Assembly: GCA_963717945.1 (NCBI GenBank)
Contig: CAVQXT010000003.1
Location: 385,880 to 449,879, forward strand
Reading direction: 5' to 3'
DNA: 64,000 nt
From: an uncultured Acidobacteriota bacterium
GTDB lineage: Bacteria; Acidobacteriota; Vicinamibacteria; Vicinamibacterales; Fen-181
The notes under the pieces were generated by a model. The model was not told the DNA's origin. It saw nothing but the letters and a program-made list of their open reading frames with translations, and did not search any database. Shown here piece after piece: positions 13,570-53,703 of the stretch; within the stretch, counting starts at the first letter, position 1, and each line of letters begins with the position of its first letter. Made by a program: the position numbers and the translations under genes.

Positions 13570-15756
<2,187 letters not shown>

Positions 15757-38390: not shown

Positions 38391-39548
38391 TCATTGCTTG
38401 AGCCCCTTGGCGAGCGCTTCCAGATAGGCCGCCAGGTTCTTCATCTCGCCGGGCTCGAACTTGGGCCAGAACGAGGTGCGCTCGGCCATCGTGCGGTGCA
38501 TCGCGGGGGCGTGATTCCACATCGCCGAGGCCAGGCCGGCGCGGTCGGTGCGCCGGGCCAGGCCGGCCAGGTTCGGCGCGCCGCCGCCGTCCTTGTGGCA
38601 CGACGCGCAGCCCTTCCTGTCGAACACCGCCGCCCCCGCCTTCGGGTCTCCCTCCTGCCCCACGTAGCCGAGGAAGTAGAGGTCGGCGATGAGGTCCGCC
38701 ATCTCCGTGCCGGTGAACTGCGGGAACCTGATCCCTTTCGCTCCCATCCGCGCGCTCATGGCGTAGCTGTGGTCCCACAGCAGCCCGGTGATCTCGGACG
38801 CGGTCTTCGAGAGCGTCGAGCGGGCGAGGTCCGGCGCCGACCGCCCGGGTCCGTCGTGACACGCGCCGCAGCCCTTGCTCCGGTAAACCGCCGCTCCCCT
38901 GGTCGGGTTCGGCAGCGGCTCCAGGACGACGTCGCGTCCCGGCCGCTGGCCCTCGGCGCGGATGAAGGCCTGGATGTCGGCCATGTCGTGCCCGGAGAAC
39001 TCCGGGATCGGCGTGCCGGTGCGCACCTGCGCCTGCTGCATGCGCGGGCCGGCGTTCCACATCGCCTGCGCCAGCGCCGTTGACGACGTGAAGGCGCTGA
39101 AGCGATCGAGCGCGCCGCCCATGTCCCCGCCGCGCTTTCCGAGCGAGTGGCAGCTGACGCACTGCAGCCGGGCGTAGGTCTGCGCGCCCCGCGCCGCGTC
39201 GCCCGGCTCGTCGAACAGGCGCAGGTAGTAGAGGTAGCTCAGGATGTCGGCCATCTCCGCCGGGTCGAGCGTCGGCCACGCCTCGCCGAGCCGCGACACC
39301 CGGTCGATCATCTGCGGCGTGTGGTTCCAGAAATCGCCGACCAGCTCGTAGAACGACTTGCCGGCGACCGCCACGCTCATCTCGGGGCCGAGGTGCCCGC
39401 CGTGGCCCCAGACCGAGTGGCACTCGGTGCACCGCTTCTCCTCGAAGCGCTGCCGGCCGAGGAACGGGTTGCCCTCCTGGGCCGACGCCGGGCCGGCCGC
39501 GAGGGCCGCCACGACGGCGGCCGCCGCCGCGAAGGCTCGTGTGCTCAT
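38391..39548 (-). CDS. tetraheme c-type cytochrome (four class I-like domains), periplasmic
   Basis: Signal peptide MSTRAFAAAAAVVAALAAGPASA. Four CxxCH motifs (CTECH, CVSCH, CGACH, CASCH) are spaced about 100 aa apart, and each is followed by a W(N/D)Hxxx M-type segment. The start overlaps the NrfD-like stop as ATGA. Confidence 0.9.
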   Translation of the reverse strand: MSTRAFAAAAAVVAALAAGPASAQEGNPFLGRQRFEEKRCTECHSVWGHGGHLGPEMSVAVAGKSFYELVGDFWNHTPQMIDRVSRLGEAWPTLDPAEMADILSYLYYLRLFDEPGDAARGAQTYARLQCVSCHSLGKRGGDMGGALDRFSAFTSSTALAQAMWNAGPRMQQAQVRTGTPIPEFSGHDMADIQAFIRAEGQRPGRDVVLEPLPNPTRGAAVYRSKGCGACHDGPGRSAPDLARSTLSKTASEITGLLWDHSYAMSARMGAKGIRFPQFTGTEMADLIADLYFLGYVGQEGDPKAGAAVFDRKGCASCHKDGGGAPNLAGLARRTDRAGLASAMWNHAPAMHRTMAERTSFWPKFEPGEMKNLAAYLEALAKGLKQ

Positions 39549-40897
39549 CGCTCCACCGCCGCCATATCGTCGGGAAGGTACGACGCCACGCGCTCGGAGA
39601 CCTCGTGCACCGACAGGTCGCGGCCCTCCTGGATCTCCCAGATCGAGATGATCGGGAAGAACTTGGTCGCCACCATGTAGACCAGGACGAACCCGGCCAG
39701 CGTGCCCGCCATGATCGACAGCTCGACCCACGACGGCATGTAGTGCACCGACGCCGCCTGCAGCCGCGGGTGGAGCGAAGTCGGGACGACGATGTTGAAC
39801 CGCTCCAGCCACATGCCGATGACGACCGCGATCGACGCGACGACGCACCCGGTCACGTTGCGCGTCTTCCGGCGCGCCATCAGCGCGAAGGGGATGAAGA
39901 AACAGCAGGCCACCATCGTCCAGAACGGGATCGCGAACTCCCCGGTCAGCTTGGCGTAGAGCGTGGCCAGCTCCGACGCCTCGCCGCCGTACCAGACGGT
40001 GAGGTGCTCGGCGAAGGTGAAGTAGAACCACAGCACCGTCGTCACCAGCAGCAGCAGCCCCATGTTGTTGAAGTGCACGTCTTTGAAGTACGCCTCGAGG
40101 CGGTAGACGCGCCGCAGGATCGCCATCGCGATGATGAGCGCCGCGATCCCCGAGAAGATGGCGCCGACGACGAAGTAGGGGCCGAAGATCGCGCTGTGCC
40201 ACATCGGCTTCAGCGTCAGCGCGAAGATCCAGCCGATGACGGTGTGGACCGAGACCGCGACCGGGATCACCGCCACGGCGAGAATCCCGATGATCCGCTC
40301 GAGCGTCGCGCGGGCGGCCGGCGTGTCGTGGTAGCCGATCGCGAGGAACGAGTACAGCGCGCGGGGGCGGAGCCCGAGGTCGCGGATGCGCGCGAGGTCC
40401 GGGATCATCGGCACGTACAGGTAGACGGAGCTGGCCGTGAAGTAGAGCGTGATGCTCAGAACGTCCCAGAGGAGGGGCGAGAACGGCTGCGAGTGGAGGA
40501 AGATGTTCAGCACGCGGTCCGGCCGGCCCAGGTCGAGGATCGGCTGCACGGCGCCGAAGCCGATGACGAGCACCGTGATGAACTCGGCCGACCGCGTGAT
40601 CGACCGCCGCCACTCCGCGTTCGCCACGCGGAGGATCGCCGAGATGAGCGTGCCGGCGTGCGAGATGCCGATGAAGAACACGAAGCAGATGATGTAGATG
40701 CCCCAGTACTCGGGCGTGTTCAGGCCGGTCGCGCCCAGGCCGTCGCGCAGCTGGTAGGCGTAGGCGAAGGCGCCCCACAGGGCGACGGCGGCCATCAGCG
40801 CGGCCCAGCGCCAGAACACCTTCGTCGTGCGCACCAGCGGCATGAGCAGCACGCGCTCGTCCTGGGGCAGCTTCGAGACGATTTCAAGATCGGTCAC
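39545..40897 (-). CDS. NrfD/PsrC-family integral membrane quinone-interacting subunit
   Basis: 450 aa with a GTG start and about 10 TM helices. The N-terminal region FWRWAALMAAVALWGAFAYAYQLRDGLGATGLNTPEYWGIYIICFVFFIGISHAGTLISAILR is typical of NrfD/PsrC/ActC. Confidence 0.88.
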   Translation of the reverse strand: MTDLEIVSKLPQDERVLLMPLVRTTKVFWRWAALMAAVALWGAFAYAYQLRDGLGATGLNTPEYWGIYIICFVFFIGISHAGTLISAILRVANAEWRRSITRSAEFITVLVIGFGAVQPILDLGRPDRVLNIFLHSQPFSPLLWDVLSITLYFTASSVYLYVPMIPDLARIRDLGLRPRALYSFLAIGYHDTPAARATLERIIGILAVAVIPVAVSVHTVIGWIFALTLKPMWHSAIFGPYFVVGAIFSGIAALIIAMAILRRVYRLEAYFKDVHFNNMGLLLLVTTVLWFYFTFAEHLTVWYGGEASELATLYAKLTGEFAIPFWTMVACCFFIPFALMARRKTRNVTGCVVASIAVVIGMWLERFNIVVPTSLHPRLQAASVHYMPSWVELSIMAGTLAGFVLVYMVATKFFPIISIWEIQEGRDLSVHEVSERVASYLPDDMAAVER

Positions 40898-40901
40898 AGC
40901 A

Positions 40902-41585
40902 CTATTCCCGTCGTGACAGGTAGTAGACCTTCGGCTCGGTGCCCAGCCCCTCCTGGAGGCGGAAGGCGCGCGGGTCGCGCGCCAGTTCCGCGACCCGGTG
41001 CGCCGGGTCGTCGAGATTGCCGAACACGATCGCCCCGGTCGGGCAGCTGTCGGCGCAGGCGGTCGTGAAGTCCTGCTCGCGCAGCGGGCGTTTCTCGACC
41101 CGCGCGTTCTCCCGCGCCTTCTGCAGCCGGTGGCTGCAGAACGTGCACTTCTCGATGACGCCCACCGGCCGCACCGACACGTCGGGGTTCAGCCCCGGCA
41201 GCGTCGACTCGGGGTGATTCGGCCGGTGCCAGTTGAAGTACTTGACGGTGTACGGGCAGGCGTTGGCGCAGTACCGGCAGCCGATGCACCGGGCGTAGAT
41301 CTGGTTGACGATCCCCTCGCGGTCGATCGACGTCGCCTGCACCGGGCACACCAGCGTGCAGGGCGGCCGGTCGCAGTGCATGCACGGCTGCGGCACGAAC
41401 CGCGTCCTGAGGTCCGGCCACTCGCCCTCGATGTCCACGCGCACCTGCATCCACGAGATCGTGCGGTGCTCGGCGGCGGCCTGCGACCCCCCCACGGCGA
41501 CGTTGTTCTCGGACCGGCAGGCCACCTCGCACGCCTGGCAGCCGTTGCACTTGTCGAGGTCGATGACCATTCCCCAGCGGGCCAT
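40902..41585 (-). CDS. 4Fe-4S ferredoxin-type iron-sulfur subunit (PsrB/NrfC/DmsB-like)
   Basis: MARWGMVIDLDKCNGCQACEVAC..., CMHCDRPPCTLVCP, CIGCRYCANACP, CTFC and CADSCP give four Cys clusters. Confidence 0.92.
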   Translation of the reverse strand: MARWGMVIDLDKCNGCQACEVACRSENNVAVGGSQAAAEHRTISWMQVRVDIEGEWPDLRTRFVPQPCMHCDRPPCTLVCPVQATSIDREGIVNQIYARCIGCRYCANACPYTVKYFNWHRPNHPESTLPGLNPDVSVRPVGVIEKCTFCSHRLQKARENARVEKRPLREQDFTTACADSCPTGAIVFGNLDDPAHRVAELARDPRAFRLQEGLGTEPKVYYLSRRE

Positions 41586-41595
41586 GCCAGTCTCC

Positions 41596-43992
41596 TCAGA
41601 GCCGGATCACTCGCACTCGCGTCGACGGCCAGTCCGGCAGGCCGCTCACCGGATCGACCGCCCGGCCCACCGCCGAGAGCGGGTTGGCGCCGTTCGGCTC
41701 GCCCCACCCCTCGTCGTTGCTCGGGGCGCCCTGAGCCTCTGGAAGGGCGACGCGAGAGTGCAGGCCGTACGGCACGCTGACGACGCCCGGCTGCGCGCCG
41801 AGCGTCACCCGGACGGTCGCCTCGAACCGGCCGCGGCTCGATTCGACCCGCACGCGCTGGCCCGACTCCAGCCCCGCACTGCGCGCCGTCTCGGGGCCAA
41901 TCTCGATCCACGTCTCCCACGCGCTGCCGTTGAGCGCGCCGAGGTGCTCGAGCAGCCACGGCATCAGGGGCGTCCCGCCGGACGCGAGCGTCATAACGCG
42001 GAACGGGACCAGCTGCAGGGGAAATTCGCGGAGCCCGTTGTCCTGCGCCTGCGGCGACGCGTCGATCGGGAGGAACCCCTCCGCCAGGGCGCGGCCGGAC
42101 TTCGCCAGGCGCTCCCTGGCCTCGACGGGGAACATCCAGACGCGGCCGTCGGGGAGCTGCGACCGGCCGGCGCCGTCCTCGTAATCGACCAGCGGATCGA
42201 ACCAGCCGCCGGACTCGACGATGGTCTGCCAGAACTCCTCGGGCTTCTGCCCGTGGGGAAGCCACCAGCCGCGCCCCTCGACCTCGCCCAGCTCGCGCTG
42301 CCTGAATCGATCGACGAACGCGCTCCCCCGTCCGGCGCTCGCCAGCGAGAGGCCGCGCTCGTGGACCAGGTCCTCGACCGACTTCCACCGGGCCCACGCC
42401 GCCGCGCTCCCGCCCATCCGCGACGCGAGGCCGAGGATGACGTCGCCGGTGGCGCGCGTGTTCACCAGCGGCTTGACGACGGGACGGACCACGCCCCACA
42501 CCGGCGAGGGCACGGCGGCCGGCGCCACGGCGTCCTGCCAGCGTTCGAGATACGTGTGGTCGGGCAGGATCAGGTGGGCCGATCGCGCGCTCTCGTCGAA
42601 GAAGGGAGAGAACGACACGACCAGCGGCACCCGCGCGAGCGCCTGGCGGGCCGCCTCCGGATCGGGCAGCGAGGCCACCGGGTTCGCGTGGTAGAGGAAC
42701 AGGACCTGCGTCGACCCGGCGGCGTGGCCCTCGCCCGATGGCCAGGTCGTCGCCGTGAGCGGCGCGCTCGCGAGATCGATCTCGCCCGGCGCCCTGCGCT
42801 CGGCCGGGCCCGGCAGCGGCGGCATCGGGCCCTGCACCAGCAGCCCGCCCGGCCGGCCGAGCCGGCCGGTCAGCGTGTTGAGCGCGTGAATGGCCAGCGC
42901 GTCCGACAGGCCCCCGGTGCGCCACGCGACCGCCTGGTCCCACACCGCCACGGCGCGCCGCGCGCCGCCGAACTGCTTGGCGAGCGCGGTGAGCGTCGCC
43001 ACCGGCACGCCCGTGCGCGCCGACACCTCGTCCGGGCGGCCGTGCCTCAAGACCAGCGTCCGGAAGCCGACGTGCGTCACGCCGTCCGCGCCGGTCCAGT
43101 CGTCCCAGCCCGCCACCTGCCGGGCGACCTGGTCGGGGTCGTAGAGCCCTTCCTTGACGATGACGTAGGCAAGGCCCAGCGCGAGCGCGCCGAACGTCCC
43201 CGGCCGGACCGCGACGAACTGGTGCGCGCCGACCGCGGTTCGAGACAGCCGGACATCCACCTGCACCCAGCGCGGCGACCGGCCGGGAGGTTCGGCGTCG
43301 CGGGCGCGCGCGGCCTGGAGCGGCGACCACCAGGCGTCCGACAGCGCCGCGCCGAAGGAGAGCACGAAATCGGCGCCGGCCAGATCGAACGCCGGGGCCG
43401 TCGCGATCCCCTGGCACAGGCGCATGAGGTCGGCGGACCCGTCCCGGTAATCGTCCACCGACACGCGCGTCGTCCCCATGACGCCGCAGAATCCCGCGAG
43501 GAGTTCGCCCATGACGCCGGAGACGTCCCCGACCATCCACTCGACCGGCGTCGCGCCCCCGGGCCGATACGCGGACTCGAGCGCCGACGCGACGCGATCG
43601 AGCGCCGCGTCCCATCCGATCGGCTTGAACTGGTCGGACCCGGGCGGCCCGACGCGCACCAGCGGCCCCTTCAGCCTCGCGGGGTGATAGAGCAGCTGGA
43701 GTCCCGCGCGCCCCTTGGGGCACAGCCCGCCCTGGCTCACCGGGTGGAGCGGGTTGCCGTCGATGCGGACCGGCCGGCCGTCGATGAGGCGGACCCTGAT
43801 CCCGCAGTGCGCGGGGCACAGCAGGCACGTGGAGGCGACAAACGTCTCGTCGTTCGGCGCCCAGTCCGGTCCCACGTGAGGCGAGGCCAGCGGGAACTGA
43901 TGCGAGAGGGCGCCGAGGCCGAAGCCGATGCCGGCACCCGCCGCGCCGACCAGGAAGCTCCGTCGGGAAATGGCCACCTCGCGCCCCCTCAC
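41596..43992 (-). CDS. Tat-exported molybdopterin-oxidoreductase-family catalytic-type subunit (PsrA/ActB1/QrcB-like)
   Basis: The GTG at 43992 overlaps the upstream stop as GTGA. It has a twin-arginine signal (AISRRSFLVGAAGAGIGFG) and an intact FS0 motif CLLCPAHC-x27-C. The rest is MopB-like, with a C-terminal beta-barrel domain (RVRVESSRGRFEATVRVT). An alternative GTG lies at 43977. Confidence 0.88.
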   Translation of the reverse strand: MRGREVAISRRSFLVGAAGAGIGFGLGALSHQFPLASPHVGPDWAPNDETFVASTCLLCPAHCGIRVRLIDGRPVRIDGNPLHPVSQGGLCPKGRAGLQLLYHPARLKGPLVRVGPPGSDQFKPIGWDAALDRVASALESAYRPGGATPVEWMVGDVSGVMGELLAGFCGVMGTTRVSVDDYRDGSADLMRLCQGIATAPAFDLAGADFVLSFGAALSDAWWSPLQAARARDAEPPGRSPRWVQVDVRLSRTAVGAHQFVAVRPGTFGALALGLAYVIVKEGLYDPDQVARQVAGWDDWTGADGVTHVGFRTLVLRHGRPDEVSARTGVPVATLTALAKQFGGARRAVAVWDQAVAWRTGGLSDALAIHALNTLTGRLGRPGGLLVQGPMPPLPGPAERRAPGEIDLASAPLTATTWPSGEGHAAGSTQVLFLYHANPVASLPDPEAARQALARVPLVVSFSPFFDESARSAHLILPDHTYLERWQDAVAPAAVPSPVWGVVRPVVKPLVNTRATGDVILGLASRMGGSAAAWARWKSVEDLVHERGLSLASAGRGSAFVDRFRQRELGEVEGRGWWLPHGQKPEEFWQTIVESGGWFDPLVDYEDGAGRSQLPDGRVWMFPVEARERLAKSGRALAEGFLPIDASPQAQDNGLREFPLQLVPFRVMTLASGGTPLMPWLLEHLGALNGSAWETWIEIGPETARSAGLESGQRVRVESSRGRFEATVRVTLGAQPGVVSVPYGLHSRVALPEAQGAPSNDEGWGEPNGANPLSAVGRAVDPVSGLPDWPSTRVRVIRL

Positions 43993-44525
43993 CTGTGACA
44001 GGCGATGCAGTTGGCCGGCACGTTCCGCCGCTCGTGGCAGTCGGTGCACGTCTTCATGACGATCTGCACCAGCGGCCGCGGCGGCGGGGCCGTCGTGTCG
44101 GCGATGGCGCCGTGGCAGGTCGCGCAGGGCAGGCCGGCCACGGTGACGTGGCGCCGGTGGGAGTAATACACGTGGTCGGGCAGCCGGAACGTCTTCCGGA
44201 ACACCGGCGGCGTCGGGCTCGCGGCGAGCGTGATGAGCTTCCGCTCCTCGGGCGACTTGGTCATCGGCTGCTGGTGACACCCGACGCAGAGCGCGAGGTC
44301 GGGCAGGCCCGAGTGCTGGTGATCGGCGTAGTACTGGTGGCAGGTCGAGCAGTCGAGCCCGGCGTCCTTGACGTGCTTCCGATGGTTGAACTGGATCGGC
44401 TGGACGACGGCGCCGTTCGGGTCGAACGCGGCACGTCCGGCGGCGAAGCCCGCGACCGCCATCAGCACGGTGAACGCGCCGAGGGCGAGCCTCCTGGTTG
44501 GACCGAGCTTCTCATCGACGTTCAC
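43989..44525 (-). CDS. membrane-anchored pentaheme c-type cytochrome (cytochrome c3/c7, ActA/QrcA-like)
   Basis: 178 aa with a GTG start and AGGAG upstream. The N-terminal TM anchor is LALGAFTVLMAVAGFAAG. Five CxxCH motifs are present: CSTCH, CVGCH, CATCH, CTDCH, CIACH. Confidence 0.9.
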   Translation of the reverse strand: MNVDEKLGPTRRLALGAFTVLMAVAGFAAGRAAFDPNGAVVQPIQFNHRKHVKDAGLDCSTCHQYYADHQHSGLPDLALCVGCHQQPMTKSPEERKLITLAASPTPPVFRKTFRLPDHVYYSHRRHVTVAGLPCATCHGAIADTTAPPPRPLVQIVMKTCTDCHERRNVPANCIACHR

Positions 44526-44580
44526 GCTTCGGCTCCTGCACGCTCGCCGCCGCCACGTTGCACGTCCCGCCCGCCGGCGG

Positions 44581-45069
44581 TCAGGCCGATTCGGCCTGGC
44601 TTCCCGGGTCGAGCGTCCGCTGCAGCTCCCGTGCCCAGAGCGCCTGGAACATCGTGAGACGGCTGACCATCAGTTCCGAGATCCCCGTGCGAACCACGCG
44701 CTCGATCACCGGGTCGGCCGCAAAGAGCTTTTCGAGGTCGAGCCGCCCGAACGCCAGGATCTCGGCGGGCGCCGCCGCGCGTGCCGACAGGGTGAAGCGG
44801 AACGGCCGGACGAGCGCAGACCAGCCGACCGTCTTGCCCGGTCCGACCGCTTCGACGGTGATGTCCTTGACGACGCCTCCGACGTTGATCGGCAGGCACA
44901 GGTCCACCAGACCGCGGACGACGAGGCTGATGTACTGCGCGCTGTCGCCGAGCAGGAAGAGGTAGTCGCCGCTCCCGAGCGACCGCTTCCGCGCGATGGC
45001 GTCCAGGCGCATCAGCTTCGCGGCATCGAGACCGTCGAACAGCTCGGCCGCGCGGAGGGACTCCAGCAT
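44581..45069 (-). CDS. stand-alone cyclic-nucleotide-binding (cNMP/Crp-like effector) domain protein
   Basis: 162 aa. ELFDGLDAAKLMRLDAIARKRSLGSGDYLFLLGDSAQYISLVVRGLV...VGWSALV fits the cNMP-binding beta-roll. There is no C-terminal HTH. Confidence 0.8.
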   Translation of the reverse strand: MLESLRAAELFDGLDAAKLMRLDAIARKRSLGSGDYLFLLGDSAQYISLVVRGLVDLCLPINVGGVVKDITVEAVGPGKTVGWSALVRPFRFTLSARAAAPAEILAFGRLDLEKLFAADPVIERVVRTGISELMVSRLTMFQALWARELQRTLDPGSQAESA

Positions 45070-45125
45070 GCGACCTTCCTTGGAAAACCGTTGTAGGGCG
45101 GGTCTTCAGACCCGCCGCCGCGCGC

Positions 45126-45189
45126 CGGCCCTGTCCGCCTTCGCCCGGCTACGGCGGATCCGCCGTAGCGCTTCGCGCGGAGGCGGAAA
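45126..45189 (-). repeat. 64-bp structured intergenic repeat, copy 1 (identical to 54773-54836 in inverted orientation)
   Basis: The reverse complement of 45126-45189 equals 54773-54836 at 64 of 64 positions by my alignment, and similarity extends about 9 nt further. The centre is the perfect 22-bp palindrome GCTACGGCGGATCCGCCGTAGC (45148-45169). Confidence 0.85.
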
Positions 45190-45284
45190 GGGCCGGCCTA
45201 CGTACGAATTCGTACTGGAGACCGACGGCCGCCCAGCCGGCCCCAGAATGGCTGAGCGGCCCAATCGGCCCGGGGGCTCCAGCG

Positions 45285-45626
45285 TCAGTGCGCGTGAAGA
45301 GACGTGCCGACCCGGCGGTAGAGGTTGTCCACCGATGGCTGATGGACGAACTGCGCCACCACCGCCTGCTCGAGCCGGACGTGGTGTTCGAGACGGCTGA
45401 CCATCGCCTCGTTGAAGGCCGAAGCGGCCGGCGTGACCGCCCCGTCGGCGGGCGCGAAGAAACCGGGGACGGCGACGATGGCGGAAGCTCTGGCCGCCGC
45501 GTCTCCCAGCCGGCCCTTGGCCTGCCGCGCGCGTTCGGCCTCGCTGCTCTGATAGCCCATCGCGAGCATCAGGACCATCCCTCCGAACAGGACCGCCACG
45601 ACGACAACGACCAGAGCTGATTCCAT
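45285..45626 (-). CDS. small single-pass membrane protein (113 aa)
   Basis: ATG at 45626 with GGGAGG upstream. MESALVVVVVAVLFGGMVLMLAMGY forms a TM helix and the rest is soluble. It sits directly behind a sigma-54 promoter. Confidence 0.65.
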   Translation of the reverse strand: MESALVVVVVAVLFGGMVLMLAMGYQSSEAERARQAKGRLGDAAARASAIVAVPGFFAPADGAVTPAASAFNEAMVSRLEHHVRLEQAVVAQFVHQPSVDNLYRRVGTSLHAH

Positions 45627-45654
45627 CGTGCGCCTCCCTTCGAGGGACGTCATG

Positions 45655-47223: not shown

Positions 47224-49115
47224 AAGGCCTCCGCGCCCGAGAGGGGGAAGACGACCTCGATGCACGAGCCGCGCCCGACGGCGCTCTCGACCAGCCGGAC
47301 GTCGCCGCCGAAGCGGCGCATGAACCGGCGCGAGAGGAAGAGGCCGAGGCCGGTGCCGTCCGGCTTCTCGGTCCGGAACGGCTCGAACAGGTGTCGCTGG
47401 GCCTCCGGCGGAATGCCGCAGCCGTTGTCGCGCACCTGCAGGCGCACCTGCTCGCCGACGTCGACGCGCACGGCCACCCGCCCGCCGCGCCCGCCGCACG
47501 ACTCGATGGCGTTGACGAGCAGGTTCAGCACCACGTGCTGCACGACCTCGGTGTTGGCCGAGACGATGGGGATCGGGCCGCTCCGGTCGCGGACCAGCTC
47601 GACCTCCGCCGCGCGCGCGGCCGGGGCGGCGAGCGAGAGGACGCCGTCGACGACTTCGCCGAGATCGATCGGCTCGGTGGCCGGCGGGATGCCGCGGGCG
47701 AAACGCAGGAACTGCCGGGTGATCGTGCGGCACCGCATCACCTGGTCGCGAATCACCGAGGCGCTGTCGCGGATCGCCTCGAGCGTGGCGGCGTCGGGCG
47801 GGCCGTCGGCCGGGCCCGGGAGCTGGTCGAGGATCCCCTCGGCGCAGGTGAGCGTCGTGGCGAGCGGCGTGTTGACCTCGTGCGACAGGCCGGACGCCAG
47901 GATGCCCAGCGAGGACAGGCGCTCGAACTCGGCGAGATGCTCCTCACCCCGGACGCGATCGGTGATGTCGCGCCACGCCTCGACCACCTGCCCGACCGAC
48001 CCGTCCTCGGCGTAGACCGGAGACGCGTAGATCTCGTAGATGCGCTCGTCGCCGCCGTCGGACGCGGGCATGCGGTAGGTGGCCTGCGCGAGGCGCCCCG
48101 TGGACAGGCACCGCGCCGTCGGGCACTCGGGGTCGTCGCCGCAGGGCAGGACGTGGCCCGTCACGCGGCGGCACTCCTGCCCGCGCAGCGCGTCGGGATG
48201 CGCGCCGAGCCACGTGGCGATCGACCGGTTGGCCGCGACCACCTTGAAGTCCCGCCCGAGCACGATCAGGCCGTCGTCGAGGCCGTTGAGGACGCCGGAG
48301 AGCTGCTGCTCCCGGCGCTTGATCTCCTCGACCAGGCGCGAGGTCGCGTCGGCCATGGCGTTGAAGTCGGTGGCCAGCGACGCGATCGCGTCGCCGCCCG
48401 AGGTGTCGGCCCGCTCCTCGAGCGCGCCGCCGGCGATGGCGCGCGCGGTCCGCGTGAGCGCCGAGAGCCGCGAGAGGACGACCCGGCGCAGATGCCACCC
48501 CAGGCCGCCGAGCATGACCAGCGCCACGATGCCCGACCCGGCGCCGAGGCGCCAGGCGTCGCTGCGGAACTGCGCCTGCACCTGCGAGAGCGACACGTCG
48601 AGCACCATCATGCCGTTCCAGCGCGTGGCGGGGTCGTGGCAGCGGTGGCATTCCGGGCGGTTCTCGATCGGCAGCACGGTCCTGAGGACGCCGACGCCGT
48701 TCTCCTGGAAGGTGACCCAGCGCTTGCGGTCGGCCGGGCTCTCCGCGTGGCAGACCAGGCAGGTGGGCGACGACCTCGACGTGCGGACACCGACCTCGGC
48801 CGGCCGGCTCGACAGCTTGATGATCCCGTCGTGGTCGACGATCATCGCGCGCAGGACCTCGGGCTCGTGGCCGACGTCCCGGAGAATCCCGCCGATGAGC
48901 CCGGTGTCCCGCGCCAGCATGTCGTGCCGGAGGGCGGTCTCGAGGAGGCGGTTCTCGAGCTCGGCGGCGCCGCGGCGCGCGGCCACGGCGTGGTCGTACT
49001 GAAGGGCAGAGAGCAGGTAGAGGCCGCCGGCCAGCGGACCGAGCAGGAGCAGGCTCACCCCCAGCGCAATCCGGGCCGTGAGCCGCTCGACGTGGGGGAC
49101 TCGCAGGCGTCTCAT
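47220..49115 (-). CDS. sensor histidine kinase: periplasmic di-CxxCH domain, HAMP, Cys-rich PAS, HisKA, HATPase
   Basis: 631 aa.
- **Membrane topology:** two TM helices flank a periplasmic domain of about 160 aa.
- **Periplasmic domain:** contains CLVCH and CHRCH.
- **HAMP:** AIASLATDFNAMAD.
- **PAS:** carries ECRRVTGHVLPCGDDPECPTARC.
- **H-box:** SGLSHEVNTPL.
- **N/G boxes:** NLLVNAIES, DNGCGI, GTGLGL. Confidence 0.92.
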   Translation of the reverse strand: MRRLRVPHVERLTARIALGVSLLLLGPLAGGLYLLSALQYDHAVAARRGAAELENRLLETALRHDMLARDTGLIGGILRDVGHEPEVLRAMIVDHDGIIKLSSRPAEVGVRTSRSSPTCLVCHAESPADRKRWVTFQENGVGVLRTVLPIENRPECHRCHDPATRWNGMMVLDVSLSQVQAQFRSDAWRLGAGSGIVALVMLGGLGWHLRRVVLSRLSALTRTARAIAGGALEERADTSGGDAIASLATDFNAMADATSRLVEEIKRREQQLSGVLNGLDDGLIVLGRDFKVVAANRSIATWLGAHPDALRGQECRRVTGHVLPCGDDPECPTARCLSTGRLAQATYRMPASDGGDERIYEIYASPVYAEDGSVGQVVEAWRDITDRVRGEEHLAEFERLSSLGILASGLSHEVNTPLATTLTCAEGILDQLPGPADGPPDAATLEAIRDSASVIRDQVMRCRTITRQFLRFARGIPPATEPIDLGEVVDGVLSLAAPAARAAEVELVRDRSGPIPIVSANTEVVQHVVLNLLVNAIESCGGRGGRVAVRVDVGEQVRLQVRDNGCGIPPEAQRHLFEPFRTEKPDGTGLGLFLSRRFMRRFGGDVRLVESAVGRGSCIEVVFPLSGAEAL

Positions 49116-49245
49116 CGACCCCGGCCGCCTCCTGCGCCCGCGCAGATGTCAGTGTTGAGCCAAAACCAGTCTAGCAGGATCGCCGCAAATGGCCGCCGGC
49201 GAGGCCCCTCGACCCCGGCGAAGCCCGTCAATGGCGACCCTTGGA

Positions 49246-49294
49246 CTGACAGTTGTGTCATGTCGCGACAACGGTTACTCTGTCATCCATGACA
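49246..49294. promoter_or_regulatory. cluster of three overlapping or adjacent palindromes (candidate enhancer sites) upstream of the decaheme operon
   Basis: - CTGACAG-TT-GTGTCAT at 49246-49261.
- TGTCATGTCGCGACA at 49256-49270.
- TGTCA-TCCA-TGACA at 49281-49294.
- They lie 134-182 nt upstream of the sigma-54 promoter at 49428. Confidence 0.5.
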
Positions 49295-49427
49295 TGCCGG
49301 CGGCAGGCCCGGCTCGTCTTGTCATCGGGCTTCACCCGCGCCCGGGCGTGCGAACCCGTTGACCATCCTTCGCAAATCACACCTTTTCATGCAGCGCCCG
49401 TGCCCGGTCGTCCGGGGCAGCCCGCGA

Positions 49428-49442
49428 GGAACGGGGATTGCT
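49428..49442 (+). promoter_or_regulatory. sigma-54 (-24/-12) promoter
   Basis: AGGAACG-GGGA-TTGCT against the consensus TGGCACG-N4-TTGCW, with correct GG/GC spacing. It ends 73 nt upstream of the ATG at 49515. Confidence 0.65.
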
Positions 49443-49514
49443 CGAACGGCAGACCGGGCCCTCACCGGCCCCGAGGCCTGACGCGTCTCGCGCGGCCTGA
49501 ACCCGGAGAACGAC

Positions 49515-50492
49515 ATGGTGCGCTTGTCCCGGTTGGGAAGCCTGTCGGCATTCATGCTCATGTGGGCCGCCGCGGCCGCCGCGCAGCAGGGCGGGGCGGT
49601 CAAGGCCGCCCTGGCGGCTGACGAGGTCTGCACCGCGTGCCACAACGAGACGTGGGCGAAGCCGATCCTCGCGATCTACCAGACGCCACACGGCAACAGG
49701 GCCGACCCGCGAACGCCGGGCTGTCGGACCTGTCACGGCCCGAGCGAGGGCCACCTGAGCGACTTCAACACGTCACCCGACGTCGTGTTCGGCGCGGCGT
49801 CGAAGCGGCTGTCGCCGGCCGCCAAGCGCAACGCCTCGTGCCTCGCGTGCCACGACTCGAAGGTGCTGGCGCGGACCAACTGGATCGGCAGCCAGCACGA
49901 GAGCCATGGCGTGGCCTGCACCAGCTGCCACAACATCCACGCGCCCGATCAGAAAGTCCTCGTCAGGGCCACACAGGCGGAGGTCTGCTACGCCTGTCAC
50001 AAGGCCCAGCGCGCGCAGGTCCGCCGCATCTCGGCCCACCCGCTCGCGGTGACCGGCATCGGCAGCCCGCCGAAGATGGTCTGCTCGGACTGCCACAACC
50101 CTCACGGCTCGACCGGCCCCCAGCTTCTCGTCAAGAACACGGTGAACGAGACCTGCTACACGTGCCACGCCGAGAAGCGCGGCCCGTTCCTCTGGGAGCA
50201 CAGCCCGGTCGTGGACAGCTGCGTGAACTGCCACACGCCGCACGGCTCGACCAACGCGGCGCTGCTGAAGGTGCGCGCGCCCTTCCTGTGCCAGGAGTGT
50301 CACAGCGGGGATCACGCCGCGCAGATCAACAGCGGCGCCAACCTCGGCACCGGGGCCGTGACCACGGTCAACGGCGTGCAGCAGCCGGCCGCCGCCGCGC
50401 CGCGGGCGCAGCTCGCCGCCCGCGCCTGCCTGAACTGCCACGTGCTCATTCACGGGTCGAATCACCCGGCGGGGGCCAAGTTCCAGCGCTGA
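49515..50492 (+). CDS. periplasmic decaheme c-type cytochrome, MtrA/DmsE/MtoA/PioA family
   Basis: 325 aa with a signal peptide. Exactly ten CxxCH motifs are present: CTACH, CRTCH, CLACH, CTSCH, CYACH, CSDCH, CYTCH, CVNCH, CQECH, CLNCH. Both the spacing and the size are typical of MtrA-type cytochromes. Confidence 0.9.
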   Translation: MVRLSRLGSLSAFMLMWAAAAAAQQGGAVKAALAADEVCTACHNETWAKPILAIYQTPHGNRADPRTPGCRTCHGPSEGHLSDFNTSPDVVFGAASKRLSPAAKRNASCLACHDSKVLARTNWIGSQHESHGVACTSCHNIHAPDQKVLVRATQAEVCYACHKAQRAQVRRISAHPLAVTGIGSPPKMVCSDCHNPHGSTGPQLLVKNTVNETCYTCHAEKRGPFLWEHSPVVDSCVNCHTPHGSTNAALLKVRAPFLCQECHSGDHAAQINSGANLGTGAVTTVNGVQQPAAAAPRAQLAARACLNCHVLIHGSNHPAGAKFQR

Positions 50493-50496
50493 GCGC

Positions 50497-53238
50497 ATGG
50501 AACCTGGAACGACGAGTATGACCATCAACGCGAACACAATCGGTGCGCGGATCCAGACGATGGCCGCGCGATGGCTGCTTGCCGCGGCGATGATTGTCGC
50601 GGCCGCCGGCCAGGCTGCCGCGCAGGGCGCGGCCCCGCCCGCCGCGCAGGCGGCGAGCCAGCCTGCCGCGCCGAGCGCGAGCGACCTCACCAGGCCCGCC
50701 AGCACCGTGGAGGTCGGCGCGGGAGGCGTGAGCGACGGGTCCTACAAGGCGGGCGAGTACAACGGCCTGCAGAAGCAGGGCGGCTTCTTCATCGGCGATT
50801 TCGACATTCGCGGCGGAGGGGCCTACGACAGCGGCGACGCCACGCGGTACCGCGTCAAGGGCACCGACCTCGGCCTCTCGACGCGCAGCTTCAGCGCGGA
50901 CTACGGCGTGCAGGGCTCCTTCCGCCTGACGTTCGGCTTCAGCGAACTGCGCGCGAACCGGTCCGACAGCTACCAGACGCCCTACAACGGCGCCGGCACC
51001 GACGCGCTGACGCTGCCGGCGACCTGGCTGGTCCCCACGGTGGCGGGGTCCTCCTCCTCCAACAACGCCGTCAACACCACGAGCGCGAGAGGCCTCGTCC
51101 CGTCGATCGCCCTCGCGCCGTACATCGACACCCAGGCCGGGTCACCGACGATCGGCACGCTCATCACGCCCAACGCGACCCAGACCTCGCTCGTCAACGC
51201 CGCGGTCGCGGCCGACCTGCCGCTGTTCCACGGGTTCGGGGTGTACACCACCCGCAAACGCTTCGACGCGGGCTTCAGCCTCAACGTCGGCACCGAGTGG
51301 ACGATCGACGCGACGTTCACGCCCGAGCGCAAGAGCGGGACGAAACTGATGGGGACGGTGTCTCGAACGACGGGCGGCGACATCTCCACCGTGATCCCCG
51401 ACAGGATCGACAGCGGCACCGACCAGATCGGCCTGAACGTCACCTACAGGCACGGGAAGGGCGTCTTCCAGGGCGGCTACTACGGCTCGTTCTTCACCAA
51501 CAACGTCCCCTTCATGTCGTGGCAGAACTGGGCGACGTCGGCGTTCACGACCAACACGATGAGCAGCGCGCCGAGCAACAGCTTCAACCAGATCAACGGG
51601 TCCGCCGCGTACGCCCTCACGCGCACGACGAAGCTGACGGCCTTCGGCGCCTACGGCCGCAATACGCAGGACGACAAGTTCCTCACCGACGCCAGCACGC
51701 CGGTCGTCCCGGTCAACTCGCTCAACGGCCTCGTCGTCAGCTCCGCGTTCAACGTGAAGCTCACCAGCCGGCCCGCCAGGAAGCTGAACCTGACGGCGGC
51801 CTACAAGTTCGACAATCGCGACAACCGCACGGCGATCAACATCTTCCAGTATGCGGACGCCAGCGAGTCGGCTTCGGTGAACGCCAACTTCCCGGCCGGC
51901 CCGACCAACCCGCTCGGCGCGGTCCTCGCCCAGAACGCCAACGCCAATCGGCCCTACAGCAGGAGGCTGAACCAGTTCTCGGGTGAAGCCGACTACGCCC
52001 TGGCGCCCGGGCAGCACGTCACGGCCGGCTACCAGTTCCAGCGGGTCAGCCGCGACTGCCCCGGCTCGTGGATTTCCTGCGCGGATGCCGGGACCACCAA
52101 CGAGCACACCCTCCGCGCCGAGTGGCGGGCCACCGCCGGATCCGCCTGGACCGGCAGGCTCGCCTATGAGTACTCGCAGCGCCGGTCGCCGGACTACAAC
52201 GAGGACGCGTTCCTCGCGCTGGTTCCCTACGCGAGCGTGATCCCGGCCGGGCAGACGATGTCGGCCGTGGAGGCGCTGAACACGTACGGGCTGACCGGCT
52301 ACGGTCCGGTGCAGGGTTACAACGGCGGCGTGTTCGTGAACGGCACCTTCTTCCCGAACAACAACGCCCTCTCGAACAGCCTCTACGCGAACAACAACCG
52401 GATCAGCGAGCTCATCGGCATGCGGCGGTACTACGTCTCCGACCGGAACCGCAACAAGCTGCGCGCCGCGGTCACCTGGATGGCGACCGACGCGTTCACG
52501 CTCCAGGCGGGGCTCGACTACAACAAGGACTCCTACCCGGGCGCGACGTACGGCCTGCAGCGGTCCGACACCTGGGCGGCCAACGTGGACGGGTCGTACG
52601 CGCTCGGCGACAAGGTCAGCGTGGACGTGTACTACACGCTCGAGGCGCTCGGCAACGGCACCGCCGGGAACAGCTACACGGCCAACAGCAACACGGCCGG
52701 CGTCAACGGCTTCACGGCGCTGTCGGGCAACGCGTGCGACGGCTACACGACGCTGCAACAGCGCAACAACAACAACAAGCTCGACCCCTGCCTGAACTGG
52801 TTCACCGACATGGCCGACCGCGTGCACACCGTGGGCGTCGGGCTGAGGGGGAGAATCCAGAAGCTGGACGTGACGGCCAACGTCATGACGAGCCGGGCCA
52901 GCAGCACCAACAACGTCAGCGGCGGGAACTGGGCGAACAACCCGCTGGCGCTCGCCGGCGCGCCCGCCGGGACGGTTGCCGCCTTCTTCATCCCCGCGGC
53001 GGCGATGCCCGCCGTGACCGCGCACGTGTCGGAGATTCGCGTGAACGCGACCTACCCGGTCGCCAAGGGGCAGTCGCTCCGCCTGCTGTATTCCTACATG
53101 CGCACCAACTCGGCGGACTGGCTCTACGAGGGGACGGAGATGGGGCTGGGGACGCCGAGCGGCGTGCTGCCGACAAACGAGCAGCCGTTCGACTTCGCCG
53201 TGCACGTCTTCGCGGTGTCGTACATCGTGCGCTTCTAA
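50497..53238 (+). CDS. MtrB/PioB-family outer-membrane beta-barrel (decaheme-associated porin)
   Basis: Starts 4 nt after the decaheme gene. It has a signal-like MAARWLLAAAMIVAAAGQAAAQ and the N-terminal GVSDGSYKAGEYNGLQKQGGFFIGDFDIRGGG signature. The body is rich in alternating beta-strands with Tyr/Asn/Gly, and the terminal sequence is ...FAVSYIVRF with a C-terminal Phe. The start is uncertain (50497, 50518 or 50560). Confidence 0.8.
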   Translation: MEPGTTSMTINANTIGARIQTMAARWLLAAAMIVAAAGQAAAQGAAPPAAQAASQPAAPSASDLTRPASTVEVGAGGVSDGSYKAGEYNGLQKQGGFFIGDFDIRGGGAYDSGDATRYRVKGTDLGLSTRSFSADYGVQGSFRLTFGFSELRANRSDSYQTPYNGAGTDALTLPATWLVPTVAGSSSSNNAVNTTSARGLVPSIALAPYIDTQAGSPTIGTLITPNATQTSLVNAAVAADLPLFHGFGVYTTRKRFDAGFSLNVGTEWTIDATFTPERKSGTKLMGTVSRTTGGDISTVIPDRIDSGTDQIGLNVTYRHGKGVFQGGYYGSFFTNNVPFMSWQNWATSAFTTNTMSSAPSNSFNQINGSAAYALTRTTKLTAFGAYGRNTQDDKFLTDASTPVVPVNSLNGLVVSSAFNVKLTSRPARKLNLTAAYKFDNRDNRTAINIFQYADASESASVNANFPAGPTNPLGAVLAQNANANRPYSRRLNQFSGEADYALAPGQHVTAGYQFQRVSRDCPGSWISCADAGTTNEHTLRAEWRATAGSAWTGRLAYEYSQRRSPDYNEDAFLALVPYASVIPAGQTMSAVEALNTYGLTGYGPVQGYNGGVFVNGTFFPNNNALSNSLYANNNRISELIGMRRYYVSDRNRNKLRAAVTWMATDAFTLQAGLDYNKDSYPGATYGLQRSDTWAANVDGSYALGDKVSVDVYYTLEALGNGTAGNSYTANSNTAGVNGFTALSGNACDGYTTLQQRNNNNKLDPCLNWFTDMADRVHTVGVGLRGRIQKLDVTANVMTSRASSTNNVSGGNWANNPLALAGAPAGTVAAFFIPAAAMPAVTAHVSEIRVNATYPVAKGQSLRLLYSYMRTNSADWLYEGTEMGLGTPSGVLPTNEQPFDFAVHVFAVSYIVRF

Positions 53239-53240
53239 TG

Positions 53241-53298
53241 GATCGGGACGAATTTCAGTTTGTGCCACCGATGGCAGATTCCGAAATTCGTCCCGATC
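53241..53298. terminator. 16-bp perfect inverted repeat with nested 5-bp hairpin after the barrel gene
   Basis: GATCGGGACGAATTTC (53241-53256) pairs with GAAATTCGTCCCGATC (53283-53298). The loop contains TGCCA-ccga-TGGCA. It starts 3 nt after the TAA stop. Confidence 0.55.
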
Positions 53299-53313
53299 GA
53301 ATTCCCCCGGCCT

Positions 53314-53364
53314 TGAGCCCTGAGCCCTGAGCCGCCCTGGCCAGAGCCTCGAGCCTCGGGCCTA
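53314..53364. repeat. heptamer arrays (TGAGCCC x2, TGAGCCG ... GAGCCTC x2, GGGCCTA)
   Basis: Read directly. The arrays lie between convergent genes and run into the cytochrome c stop codon. Confidence 0.8.
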
Positions 53365-53703
53365 CTTCGCCGCCTTGAGCGTCTGCAGGTAGGCCACCAC
53401 CGCGTCGATGTCGCCCGGCTGCCACGCCACCTTCGGCATCTTGATCTTCTCGTTGGGGAATTCCTTCAGGGGGTCGGCCAGGATCGACTTGATCTTGGCG
53501 GCGTCGAGGCGGTCGGTGACGCCGTCGAGCGGCTTGCCGATCTTGCCGCCCTTGCCCGCGACAAGGTGACACATCGAGCAGTGGTTCTTGACCGCCAGTT
53601 CCTGGCCCTTGGCCACGGCCTTGGCGTCCTGGGCTGCCGCGTAGCCGGACAGCGCCACGGTACACACGACGGCGAGAAGCGTGAAGGAAGTACGTTGTGC
53701 CAT
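53362..53703 (-). CDS. monoheme class I c-type cytochrome, periplasmic
   Basis: 113 aa. Signal peptide MAQRTSFTLLAVVCTVALSGYAAA, a single CSMCH, and a distal Met candidate in KIKMPK. Confidence 0.9.
   Translation of the reverse strand: MAQRTSFTLLAVVCTVALSGYAAAQDAKAVAKGQELAVKNHCSMCHLVAGKGGKIGKPLDGVTDRLDAAKIKSILADPLKEFPNEKIKMPKVAWQPGDIDAVVAYLQTLKAAK

Follow-up and report, generated by a model that had tools for sequence, protein, structure and literature searches.

A predicted ACIII/Qrc-type quinone module beside an MtrAB-type porin-cytochrome conduit in an uncultured Vicinamibacterales bacterium

Introduction

Outer-membrane conduits of the Mtr/Mto type are the best-understood route by which bacteria exchange electrons with minerals, and the point at which electrons enter them at the inner membrane differs from lineage to lineage. 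In this paper we analyse a locus at positions 38391-53703 of a 64,000-nucleotide stretch of DNA from an uncultured Acidobacteriota bacterium of the order Vicinamibacterales (GenBank assembly GCA_963717945.1, contig CAVQXT010000003.1, positions 385,880 to 449,879; hereafter 'the window'). Here the genes for such a conduit adjoin those for a five-subunit quinone module and a two-component regulatory system. The module appears to combine features of alternative complex III (ACIII) with features of the Qrc complex, and on balance we favour the view that it links Mtr/Mto-type outer-membrane conduits to quinone at the inner membrane, in a way not recognised before.

The closest described conduits are MtoAB of Sideroxydans lithotrophicus ES-1, accompanied by MtoD and CymA or MtoC, and PioAB(C) of Rhodopseudomonas palustris TIE-1. 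Both, like the pair described here, unite a decahaem cytochrome with an outer-membrane barrel and lack MtrC. In the Mto system, as here, a class-I monohaem cytochrome (MtoD) is encoded beside the conduit, and a quinone-interacting inner-membrane partner is encoded in the neighbourhood. The partners differ in kind: the present one has five subunits, and is neither a NapC/CymA tetrahaem cytochrome nor a CbcL-like MtoC; nor is there a high-potential iron-sulfur protein. The host is an acidobacterium, the locus has a dedicated sigma-54 two-component system, and Fe(II) oxidation, the activity of Mto and Pio, is here no more than a possibility. The MtrCAB-CymA system of Shewanella oneidensis follows the same logic, in which a quinol dehydrogenase serves periplasmic cytochromes and these serve a porin-cytochrome complex. 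The decahaem cytochrome of our locus aligns with MtrA and its barrel is related to MtrB, although the barrel is ~200 amino acids (aa) longer, MtrC/OmcA and CymA are missing from the locus, and the periplasmic carriers are class-I cytochromes in place of the bis-His multihaem proteins (CctA, FccA) of Shewanella.

Two families of membrane complexes resemble the quinone module. ACIII (ActABCDEF; structures 6F0K, 6BTM, 6LOD and 8K9E) shares with it an ActC-type NrfD subunit of 10 segments that carries the R395 motif, an anchored ActA-like pentahaem cytochrome, a MopB-like subunit, a four-cluster iron-sulfur (FeS) module and a class-I cytochrome as the last subunit. It differs in that MopB and FeS are here encoded by separate genes and the FS0 cluster site is kept, ActD and ActF are absent, a protein of four class-I domains stands in the place of ActE, and no cytochrome oxidase adjoins. 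QrcABCD (Desulfovibrio/Nitratidesulfovibrio) has the same order of multihaem, MopB, FeS and NrfD subunits. The QrcA, QrcB and QrcC models are the best NCBIfam matches for three of the module subunits, all below their equivalog cut-offs, and some homologues bear the Joint Genome Institute label 'menaquinone reductase, molybdopterin-binding-like subunit'. The NrfD subunit, however, is not QrcD-like, FS0 is invariant whereas QrcB lacks cofactors (PMC13059093), and a tetrahaem cytochrome is added. Nor does the host reduce sulfate, and genes for cytochrome c3, hydrogenase or formate dehydrogenase are lacking from the neighbourhood.

Published models already assign to an ACIII-type complex the role of inner-membrane partner in an extracellular electron pathway (PMC5566968, PMC9386147). 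In the Cyc2-Cyc1-ACIII model for Mariprofundus ferrooxydans PV-1, ACIII is the inner-membrane end of the chain and is reached through a periplasmic monohaem cytochrome (PMC5566968). For MBNT15, ACIII-like clusters, one of them with an ActE-like four-haem protein, have been proposed to serve iron reduction (PMC9386147). These models differ from the present locus in having no genetic link to MtrAB: the outer-membrane partner is the fused Cyc2 or has not been identified, and the ACIII is canonical or of another variant. In Acidobacteriia, Baker et al. reported MtrCAB clusters with a tetrahaem cytochrome and no inner-membrane quinone oxidoreductase nearby (PMC8805035). In the literature searched we found no Qrc- or ACIII-type complex combined with an MtrAB conduit in one locus, and no description of the locus for Vicinamibacterales or Polarisedimenticolia. 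What is new, then, is the type of quinone module that accompanies the porin-cytochrome pathway, one not proposed before, in that literature, for an MtrAB-type conduit.

Anatomy of the locus

Coding-like open reading frames (ORFs) of the window were told from spurious ones by their G+C content at the three codon positions. The window has a G+C content of ~70%, which is uniform across the block 38391-53703, and the ORFs of the locus have a third-position G+C of 0.82-0.97. The block comprises twelve genes: nine on the minus strand, running from a sensor kinase gene to a tetrahaem cytochrome gene, two on the plus strand for the decahaem cytochrome and the barrel, and a last minus-strand gene for a monohaem cytochrome. 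Together they encode 22 CxxCH haem-binding motifs, of which ten are in the decahaem cytochrome, five in a pentahaem and four in the tetrahaem cytochrome, two in the kinase and one in the monohaem cytochrome. A first-pass annotation, made from the DNA sequence alone, had given these gene positions and this count across five proteins, and had divided the locus into a conduit, a quinone module and a two-component system with two sigma-54 promoters; all of this was recovered. Elsewhere in the window CxxCH occurs in a single coding-like ORF, with two motifs, so that the clustering of haem motifs in the locus is far beyond chance. This ORF (21474-22232, plus strand) encodes a 252-aa protein without a Pfam match, which may be an uncharacterised dihaem cytochrome.

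Related loci, designated by the letter L and a number, were gathered in two ways. A search of species-representative genomes with the barrel gave eight Acidobacteriota loci in metagenome-assembled genomes (MAGs), and a search with a MopB alignment gave 170 confirmed stretches, the best 80 of which were kept as loci. Annotated contexts were added through look-ups of exact protein sequences. All 80 loci are from MAGs, so no cultured host is identified; the MAGs with the locus were sourced from soil, fen, permafrost and groundwater.

The outer-membrane conduit

The periplasmic decahaem cytochrome (49515-50492, plus strand; 325 aa, with a Sec signal and ten CxxCH) scores 274.7 bits against the DmsE family model TIGR03508, for which the cut-off is 192.2. 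It aligns at 224.8 bits with MtrA (6r2q_A) of the Shewanella baltica MtrCAB structure 6R2Q, all ten CxxCH being in register. The barrel gene (50497-53238, plus strand) begins 4 nt past the decahaem stop, and the two are also paired in L002-L011. Its product, of 913 aa and without CxxCH, scores 327.8 bits against the MtrB/PioB model TIGR03509 (cut-off 240.05) and 383.8 bits against PF11854 (cut-off 23), covering profile positions 7-635 of 635, and matches the MtrB chain 6r2q_B at an E value of 1e-20. The pair, first called MtoAB/PioAB-type, thus passes the curated MtrB/PioB and DmsE/MtrA profiles, and by these matches is a conduit of the MtrA/MtoA/DmsE and MtrB/PioB families.

Converging on the barrel gene is that of the monohaem cytochrome (53362-53703, minus strand; 113 aa), a periplasmic class-I cytochrome c (PF00034, 47 bits) with one haem motif, CSMCH, and the Met of a KMPK sequence. 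It adjoins the barrel gene in L001, L002, L009 and L010, and in L011 an equivalent gene lies 3' of the barrel gene. The window encodes no MtrC/OmcA-type surface decahaem cytochrome, the OmcA/MtrC model giving a 22-bit partial match to the pentahaem cytochrome. Among the 41 window ORFs scanned there was also no gene for a NapC/CymA or NapC/NirT tetrahaem cytochrome, a cytochrome b or a Rieske protein. The earlier statement that the window lacks MtrC/OmcA-type and CymA- or bc1-type genes is upheld.

The quinone module

On the minus strand the five module genes follow closely on one another in the order pentahaem, MopB, FeS, NrfD and tetrahaem, with intergenic gaps of 11, 10, 4 and -4 nt; the last is a 4-nt overlap of the tetrahaem start with the NrfD stop. 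We judged the affinities of the subunits by their bit scores against hidden Markov models and Protein Data Bank chains. The NrfD subunit (39545-40897; PF03916, 123 bits; no CxxCH) has ~10 hydrophobic segments by hydropathy. Its closest solved relative is the ACIII subunit ActC (6f0k_C, 232.7 bits, E 1e-67, residues 23-423; 6btm_C, 213.9 bits), and the motif GMWFERF, which contains R395 of ActC, is kept as GMWLERF. Against the QrcD model it scores 44.6 bits, where the cut-off is 570. This subunit is presumed to hold the quinol/quinone site. ActF chains match weakly and against this same NrfD, the only one encoded at the locus; neither ActD nor ActF, the second NrfD-like subunit of ACIII, was found there.

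The FeS subunit (40902-41585; no CxxCH) is ferredoxin-like, and its 16 cysteines, in four motifs, lead us to expect four clusters. It scores 301.8 bits against the QrcC model (cut-off 400) and 168 bits against DsrO. Lacking a signal peptide, it presumably leaves the cytoplasm together with MopB. The pentahaem cytochrome (43989-44525; 178 aa, five CxxCH) has one N-terminal hydrophobic anchor by hydropathy. Its best solved relatives are the ActA chains 8k9e_A, 6btm_A, 6f0k_A and 6lod_A, and it scores 87.9 bits against the QrcA model, for which the cut-off is 180. The tetrahaem cytochrome (38391-39548; 385 aa, Sec signal, four CxxCH) is a periplasmic protein in which class-I cytochrome c domains, with CxxCH and W(N/D)H..xM in each, are repeated four times in tandem (PF00034, 85 bits; PF13442, 81 bits). 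In an alignment of 64 homologues the Met ~40 residues past each CxxCH is conserved. The tetrahaem gene lies 3' of the NrfD gene in nearly all module loci in which that flank is present, and its product may replace ActE, a monohaem subunit in ACIII, as the output or input subunit. Taken together, these affinities describe an ACIII/Qrc-type hybrid, which by its subunit scores is neither a canonical ACIII nor a canonical Qrc.

Two further genes precede the pentahaem gene in the module operon. The first behind its promoter, P1, encodes a 113-aa protein with one N-terminal transmembrane segment by hydropathy and no Pfam match (45285-45626, minus strand). Its start, MESALVV, is preceded by the ribosome-binding site GAAGGGAGG, and the protein is conserved in L002 and L009-L012 at 47-78% identity. 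The second, which lies between P1 and the pentahaem gene, encodes a stand-alone cyclic nucleotide monophosphate (cNMP)-binding-domain protein of 162 aa (44581-45069, minus strand; PF00027, 36.4 bits) without a DNA-binding domain; it is kept at this position in Vicinamibacterales-type loci only. The gap between the two genes is 215 nt here and 34-163 nt in relatives.

Linkage of conduit and module in relatives

In 14 distinct related loci from MAGs the conduit genes adjoin those of the module, and they do so in three different arrangements; the co-occurrence that the first-pass annotation had proposed to look for in relatives is there. In Type I the two sets are divergent, as they are in the window, and this type also comprises L002/L030, L009/L017, L010/L020, L018, and L019 with L001. 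In Type II (L011, L025, L027 and L035) everything forms one 14-kb operon behind a single promoter: 18 nt past the module come a different decahaem cytochrome (38.6% identity) and a different barrel (~20% identity, still PF11854), and then a monohaem gene. In Type III (L003 and L005-L008) the barrel is of the window's lineage (53-59% identity) and has as partners a strongly diverged module, with identities of 33% for MopB, 55% for FeS and 58% for NrfD, and a two-component system of the OmpR type. That varying versions of both partners are paired again and again speaks more strongly than anything else for functional coupling, which we consider likely.

A rival account is that adjacency reflects chance, or an island effect, and has no functional meaning. 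It could appeal to the divergent transcription of the two sets in the window and to the mobility of the module among contexts. The synteny data disfavour it strongly, with 14 related loci, three arrangements and differing flanking genes, and regulatory motifs common to both operons (described below) and the uniform G+C of the block count against it as well; it is scarcely credible.

The module is not confined to loci of this kind. MtrAB is present in seven of the nine Vicinamibacterales-type module loci with informative flanks; two loci of that type, L023 and L024, have the full set of regulators and module genes and no conduit within their flanks. Among the 80 species-level loci kept as the best of the 170 stretches, MtrAB was beside the module in none of the Polarisedimenticolia-type loci and in none of ~50 Gemmatimonadota loci. 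With the module so widespread without MtrAB, the link to the conduit is lineage-specific, and by its distribution the module itself is, we suggest, an autonomous and widespread quinone-to-cytochrome-c complex that has been recruited to various periplasmic and outer-membrane partners. The first-pass annotation had cast it in the role of CymA. The coupling of quinone to conduit in that proposal is backed by the linkage; what needs revision is the idea of a dedicated CymA substitute, in place of which we see a general complex that was recruited.

In Gemmatimonadota the modules often adjoin genes for Rieske protein and cytochrome b, a paralogous octahaem-FeS-NrfD-tetrahaem set, and cytochromes with 9-19 haems. 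In L062, L072 and L085, for example, the module lies near Rieske/cytochrome b genes, the paralogous set, and cytochromes with 9, 11, 12 and 19 CxxCH; the 19-haem protein of L085 (3185-5989) is fused to a cytochrome b561-like membrane domain. These neighbourhoods are possible further islands of extracellular electron transfer. In Polarisedimenticolia-type loci (L013, L034, L082 and others) a gene for a ~400-aa pentahaem Cytochrome_C554-like protein is divergent from the haem-sensor kinase gene, and so occupies the position that the decahaem-barrel pair has in Vicinamibacterales-type loci.

So wide a distribution invites another explanation, in which the module is an ACIII-type quinol:cytochrome c oxidoreductase for a general periplasmic pool of cytochrome c (oxidases, N-oxide reductases) and MtrAB is its neighbour merely through a common low-oxygen regulon, without a dedicated electron path. 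All the Polarisedimenticolia-type and the ~50 Gemmatimonadota loci, which lack MtrAB, fit such a picture, as do L023 and L024 with their regulators, module and missing conduit, and the module always brings its own tetrahaem output subunit. The explanation meets difficulty in Type II, where one operon holds the tetrahaem gene and, 18 nt further on, a different MtrAB lineage, and in Type III, where a strongly diverged module accompanies a barrel of the window's own lineage. One motif pair, moreover, is common to both promoters of the window. Recruitment two or three times independently is hard to explain without functional coupling, and a shared cytochrome c pool would still connect the two in practice. 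We regard the general-pool explanation as improbable.

Regulation

Between the two operons lie the genes for the regulators. The response regulator (45814-47223, minus strand) consists of REC, AAA+ and HTH_8 domains (PF00072, 100 bits; PF00158, 222 bits; PF02954, 34 bits) and has the GAFTGA loop at residue 223. By these features it is an NtrC-type sigma-54 enhancer-binding protein, and cognate -24/-12 promoters are predicted in front of both operons. The pattern GGNACGNNNNTTGCT occurs only twice in the 64 kb, where 0.16 matches are expected by chance, and each operon has one of the sites upstream of it, correctly oriented. P1 (GGCACGGGACTTGCT; 45655-45669, minus strand) is a -24/-12-type promoter ahead of the module operon, and P2 (GGAACGGGGATTGCT; 49428-49442, plus strand) is 73 nt 5' of the decahaem ATG. 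Because the pattern was refined with the sites already in view, more weight falls on their being conserved in relatives. The GG-N10-GC of P1 keeps a constant spacing to the ATG in L002, L009, L010 and L011, the rest of the intergenic region being 49% identical; P2 is identical in L002, and L010 carries GGAACGCGATTTGCT in the same intergenic region. A loose scan (TGGCAC-N5-TTGC with up to two mismatches) gave 37 matches against 54 expected and was uninformative, and for this reason we rely on the tighter motif and on conservation across loci. On these grounds the two sigma-54 promoters of the first-pass annotation stand.

Upstream of the promoters are palindromes that share the form CTGACA-N4/5-TGTCA. 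That of P1 is CTGACACTCCTGTCAG (45802-45817) and that of P2 is CTGACAGTTGTGTCA (49246-49260), followed by TGTCATCCATGACA; these are the only two matches to CTGACA-N5-GNCA in the window (chance expectation 0.30). In the palindrome of P1 the CTGACA block is invariant in six loci, and a second box, TGTC..GTCAG, lies ~20 nt downstream. The palindrome of P2, ~170 nt upstream of that promoter, is conserved in L002 and L010. Kept across loci in this way, the CTGACA..TGTCA palindrome is a plausible candidate for the activator-binding site. A third sigma-54-like element, GGGCACGGGCGCTGC (49391-49405, minus strand), points towards the kinase gene. Only the closest relative, L002, has kept it, and it may indicate that the two-component operon is autoregulated.

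The sensor histidine kinase (47220-49115, minus strand) is built, in order, of a first transmembrane segment, a periplasmic domain with both CxxCH (C119 and C156), a second transmembrane segment, and HAMP, PAS, HisKA and HATPase domains. Its periplasmic domain scores 26.6 bits against the Mcp40H-20 sensor model PF21563, just under the cut-off of 27. The region of the second CxxCH aligns with the Geobacter haem-sensor domains 3b47 (E 9.7e-5 over 45 residues) and 3b42. These are the haem-c PAS-like sensors GSU0582 and GSU0935 of Geobacter sulfurreducens (3B42, 3B47), from which the present protein differs in being a HAMP-PAS histidine kinase and not a chemoreceptor, in its second CxxCH, and in its output to a sigma-54 activator. 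Both CxxCH are kept in the kinases of L002, L010, L011, L013, L023 and L034. The kinase is thus predicted to be a periplasmic sensor of the GSU0935/GSU0582 type that contains c-type haem. It had first been described as part of a 'heme-sensing' circuit; this was a misreading, for in a Geobacter-type periplasmic sensor domain the CxxCH motifs point to haem that is contained, not to haem that is sensed.

An Rfam scan of 38000-54000 gave nothing at E values up to 0.1. A scan for terminators and sigma-70 promoters gave no terminators and one weak promoter-like site, upstream of an aquaporin gene.

The MopB subunit

MopB (41596-43977, minus strand; 793 aa, no CxxCH) has a Tat signal (17.4 bits against the TAT_signal_seq model, cut-off 16.7) and matches PF04879, PF00384 and PF01568. 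Among family models QrcB is best at 289.5 bits (cut-off 440), followed by PhsA at 175 (694), ArrA at 128 (1600) and TtrA at 72 (1750). MopB thus falls, by model scores, outside Psr, Phs, Ttr and Arr, a point on which the first-pass annotation had wanted a check. With the barrel passing its profiles, the two gene sets co-occurring in relatives and MopB lying outside Psr and Ttr, that annotation's main proposal survives.

The cofactors of MopB are a separate question. QrcB and ActB1 are described as lacking redox cofactors (PMC13059093, PMC6303296). In MopB the four cysteines of the FS0 [4Fe-4S] site (C51, C54, C58 and C86) are invariant in 117/117 sequences, the homologues being 57-88% identical, and they are also kept in a second MopB lineage (group 2) that is 33% identical. 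FS0 is a probable electron relay. D179 and G180 are invariant, and so is K88 of the C-x-K-G motif. The position of the molybdenum ligand, for which MopB was aligned to ArrA, PsrA, NapA and FdhF, has no Cys or Sec, and aligns to S173, D176, Y177 or D179 depending on the template. It is occupied by a conserved loop, VDDYRDG, that is absent from group-2 MopBs. The sequences DVR and LPDHTYLERW align with DPR and LP..YLER of ArrA and PsrA, and among solved chains ArrA (123 bits) and PsrA (115 bits) score higher than ActB (29-53 bits). MopB also diverges faster than its neighbours, at 64-71% identity against 80-91% for FeS and NrfD (L010 and L011). A ~14-residue insertion, ALPEAQGAPSNDEG, at residues ~743-756 is absent from most of 116 close homologues. 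An AlphaFold2 model built on a 28-sequence alignment had a mean pLDDT of 55 and a pTM of 0.53, too poor for a fold search.

Could MopB be an active enzyme? In that case it would bind a molybdenum or tungsten bis-pyranopterin guanine dinucleotide cofactor, with Asp179 or a neighbour as the metal ligand, and convert a soluble substrate in the periplasm or at the surface; this would make the locus DmsEFAB-like, or a new oxyanion or sulfur-compound oxidoreductase tied to quinone and cytochromes. In Shewanella, DmsE and DmsF feed a cell-surface MopB/FeS reductase. The invariance of the FS0 cysteines in all 117 sequences and in group 2, so different from the cofactor-less QrcB and ActB1 (PMC13059093, PMC6303296), speaks for an active enzyme, as do the invariant K88, the aligned DVR and LPDHTYLERW motifs, and the nearness to ArrA and PsrA over ActB. 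The ligand position, however, has no Cys, Sec or conserved Ser; the DDYRDG loop is missing in group-2 MopBs that accompany the same barrel lineage; the best family model is that of the non-catalytic QrcB; and the sequence of MopB changes more quickly than those of FeS and NrfD. MopB and FeS, furthermore, are tied to the inner membrane, as DmsAB is not, by NrfD as anchor, by a pentahaem that is itself anchored, and by close gene packing. An active MopB enzyme therefore has a slim chance of being correct. Its most specific form, a DmsEFAB-like surface reductase, was ruled out by the same anchors and packing and by the many loci that contain the module only.

A possible electron pathway and its direction

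We propose that the genes of the whole block, under common regulation, make up a single route for electrons through the cell envelope of this Vicinamibacterales-like acidobacterium. The ActC-like NrfD subunit would be the site at which the five-subunit complex gives electrons to the menaquinone pool or takes them from it. From there electrons would pass to the four-cluster FeS subunit, possibly also to FS0 of MopB, and on to the anchored pentahaem and the tetrahaem cytochromes. The tetrahaem and monohaem cytochromes would bridge the periplasm to the MtrA-type decahaem cytochrome inside the MtrB/PioB-type barrel, which would expose haems at the cell surface; the complex would so fill the role that CymA has in Shewanella. 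Both operons would be induced together, the c-haem kinase, as a redox or gas sensor, phosphorylating the NtrC-type activator, and the activator binding the CTGACA..TGTCA palindromes upstream of the two sigma-54 promoters. In the outward direction electrons would run from menaquinol through the complex, the c-type cytochromes and the conduit to chelated or organic Fe(III), manganese oxides or humic quinones, giving a soil heterotroph short of oxygen a respiratory outlet, in a chain that is reversible in principle. In this full form, outward direction included, the proposal is tentative, and we would put its chances a little short of even.

Of the two uses that the conduit may have, metal reduction and Fe(II) oxidation, we lean towards the first, with outward flow. 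The quinone subunit has its closest relative in ACIII, a complex that works as a quinol:cytochrome c oxidoreductase (PMC13059093). The module occurs widely without MtrAB, in Gemmatimonadota often among multihaem cytochromes, as would be expected if its general task were to carry electrons from quinol to cytochrome c and the conduit had been joined to it as one sink. A further point for the outward direction is a KatG-type catalase-peroxidase (13582-15756, plus strand; PF00141, 240 bits), the gene of which points to exposure to oxygen or peroxide.

Several observations weigh against the pathway as proposed. The module is without MtrAB in most lineages, so that adjacency could mean shared regulation and not dedicated wiring. 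Class-I cytochromes with a conserved Met, as here, are expected to be of high potential, which suits inward flow better than the reduction of low-potential Fe(III) oxides, and MtoD of Sideroxydans is a class-I carrier of inward flow. The window has no MtrC/OmcA-type gene, as is the case with the Fe(II)-oxidising MtoAB and PioAB. The invariant FS0, DxR and LP..YLERW of MopB are shared with active enzymes, and might mean that MopB is catalytic in a way of which the proposed pathway makes no use. Finally QrcABCD, the best model family for MopB and FeS, acts as a quinone reductase (PMC13059093, PMC6303296).

The same wiring might accordingly run inward. Fe(II), Mn(II), reduced humics, a mineral or a cathode would then donate electrons to the decahaem cytochrome, the monohaem and tetrahaem cytochromes would pass them to an oxidase encoded elsewhere, and a fraction would go through the complex, acting as a quinone reductase driven by the proton motive force. 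The absence of an MtrC/OmcA gene from the window fits this direction, as does the class-I monohaem cytochrome beside the barrel, which in class and position resembles MtoD of the mtoDAB-cymA cluster. The Met conserved past each CxxCH of the tetrahaem cytochrome makes probable His/Met, and hence high-potential, carriers. Precedents are the flow from cytochrome to menaquinone in Qrc, with cytoplasmic proton uptake (PMC13059093, PMC6303296), the published Cyc2-Cyc1-ACIII model of Fe(II) oxidisers (PMC5566968), and the routing of electrons to quinone by ACIII in Gallionellaceae (PMC10734462). The quinone subunit, however, is ActC-like and not QrcD-like (232.7 against 44.6 bits). Transfer from high-potential cytochromes to menaquinone is uphill and mainly of use to autotrophs, and there is no sign of autotrophy here; the module would, besides, run backwards only in the lineages that acquired MtrAB. 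The MtrAB of Shewanella reportedly still reduces soluble acceptors without MtrC, in a study cited by PMC5615132 as its reference 52. All told, inward flow seems to us rather unlikely. It is nevertheless the Fe(II)-oxidising or electron-uptake flavour that the first-pass annotation had read from the lack of MtrC: that lack and the class-I cytochromes do fit, whereas the reading is not established, and the ActC-like subunit and the wide distribution point instead to quinol oxidation.

Neighbouring genes

A gene for an FHA-GAF-PP2C/SpoIIE phosphatase (36698-38344, plus strand) converges on the tetrahaem gene across a gap of 46 nt. It was ruled out as a part of the system, being conserved only in the closest relative L030; in L011 separate genes for FHA, PP2C and Ser/Thr kinase proteins adjoin the conduit. 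Further away, at 29631-32866 (minus strand), two long ORFs in different frames overlap by ~1.1 kb and carry Glucodextran_N (30617-32866) and a GH15 catalytic domain (29631-31772). This looks like one frameshifted glucodextranase/glucoamylase gene, either a pseudogene or an assembly error. At 16514-19600 (minus strand) a 1028-aa Ser/Thr protein kinase is fused to PEGA and FGE-sulfatase domains, and its gene adjoins that of an extracytoplasmic function sigma factor (15901-16485, plus strand).

Significance

The locus puts forward a specific complex, linked genetically to the conduit, that could supply the missing inner-membrane step of an Mtr/Mto-type pathway, in an Acidobacteriota lineage beyond Acidobacteriia that is widespread in soils, fens, permafrost and groundwater. 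Its compact predicted circuit of c-haem sensor kinase, sigma-54 activator, two promoters and shared palindrome is amenable to heterologous expression. If functional, the module would be a new NrfD-based energy-converting complex of the ACIII/Qrc family, one that keeps FS0 where its relatives are thought to be cofactor-less, and in Gemmatimonadota its core may work with other multihaem systems. If the proposal is true, uncultured Vicinamibacterales own a complete and self-regulated route of extracellular electron exchange, and would join the organisms that move electrons to or from iron, manganese and humic matter.

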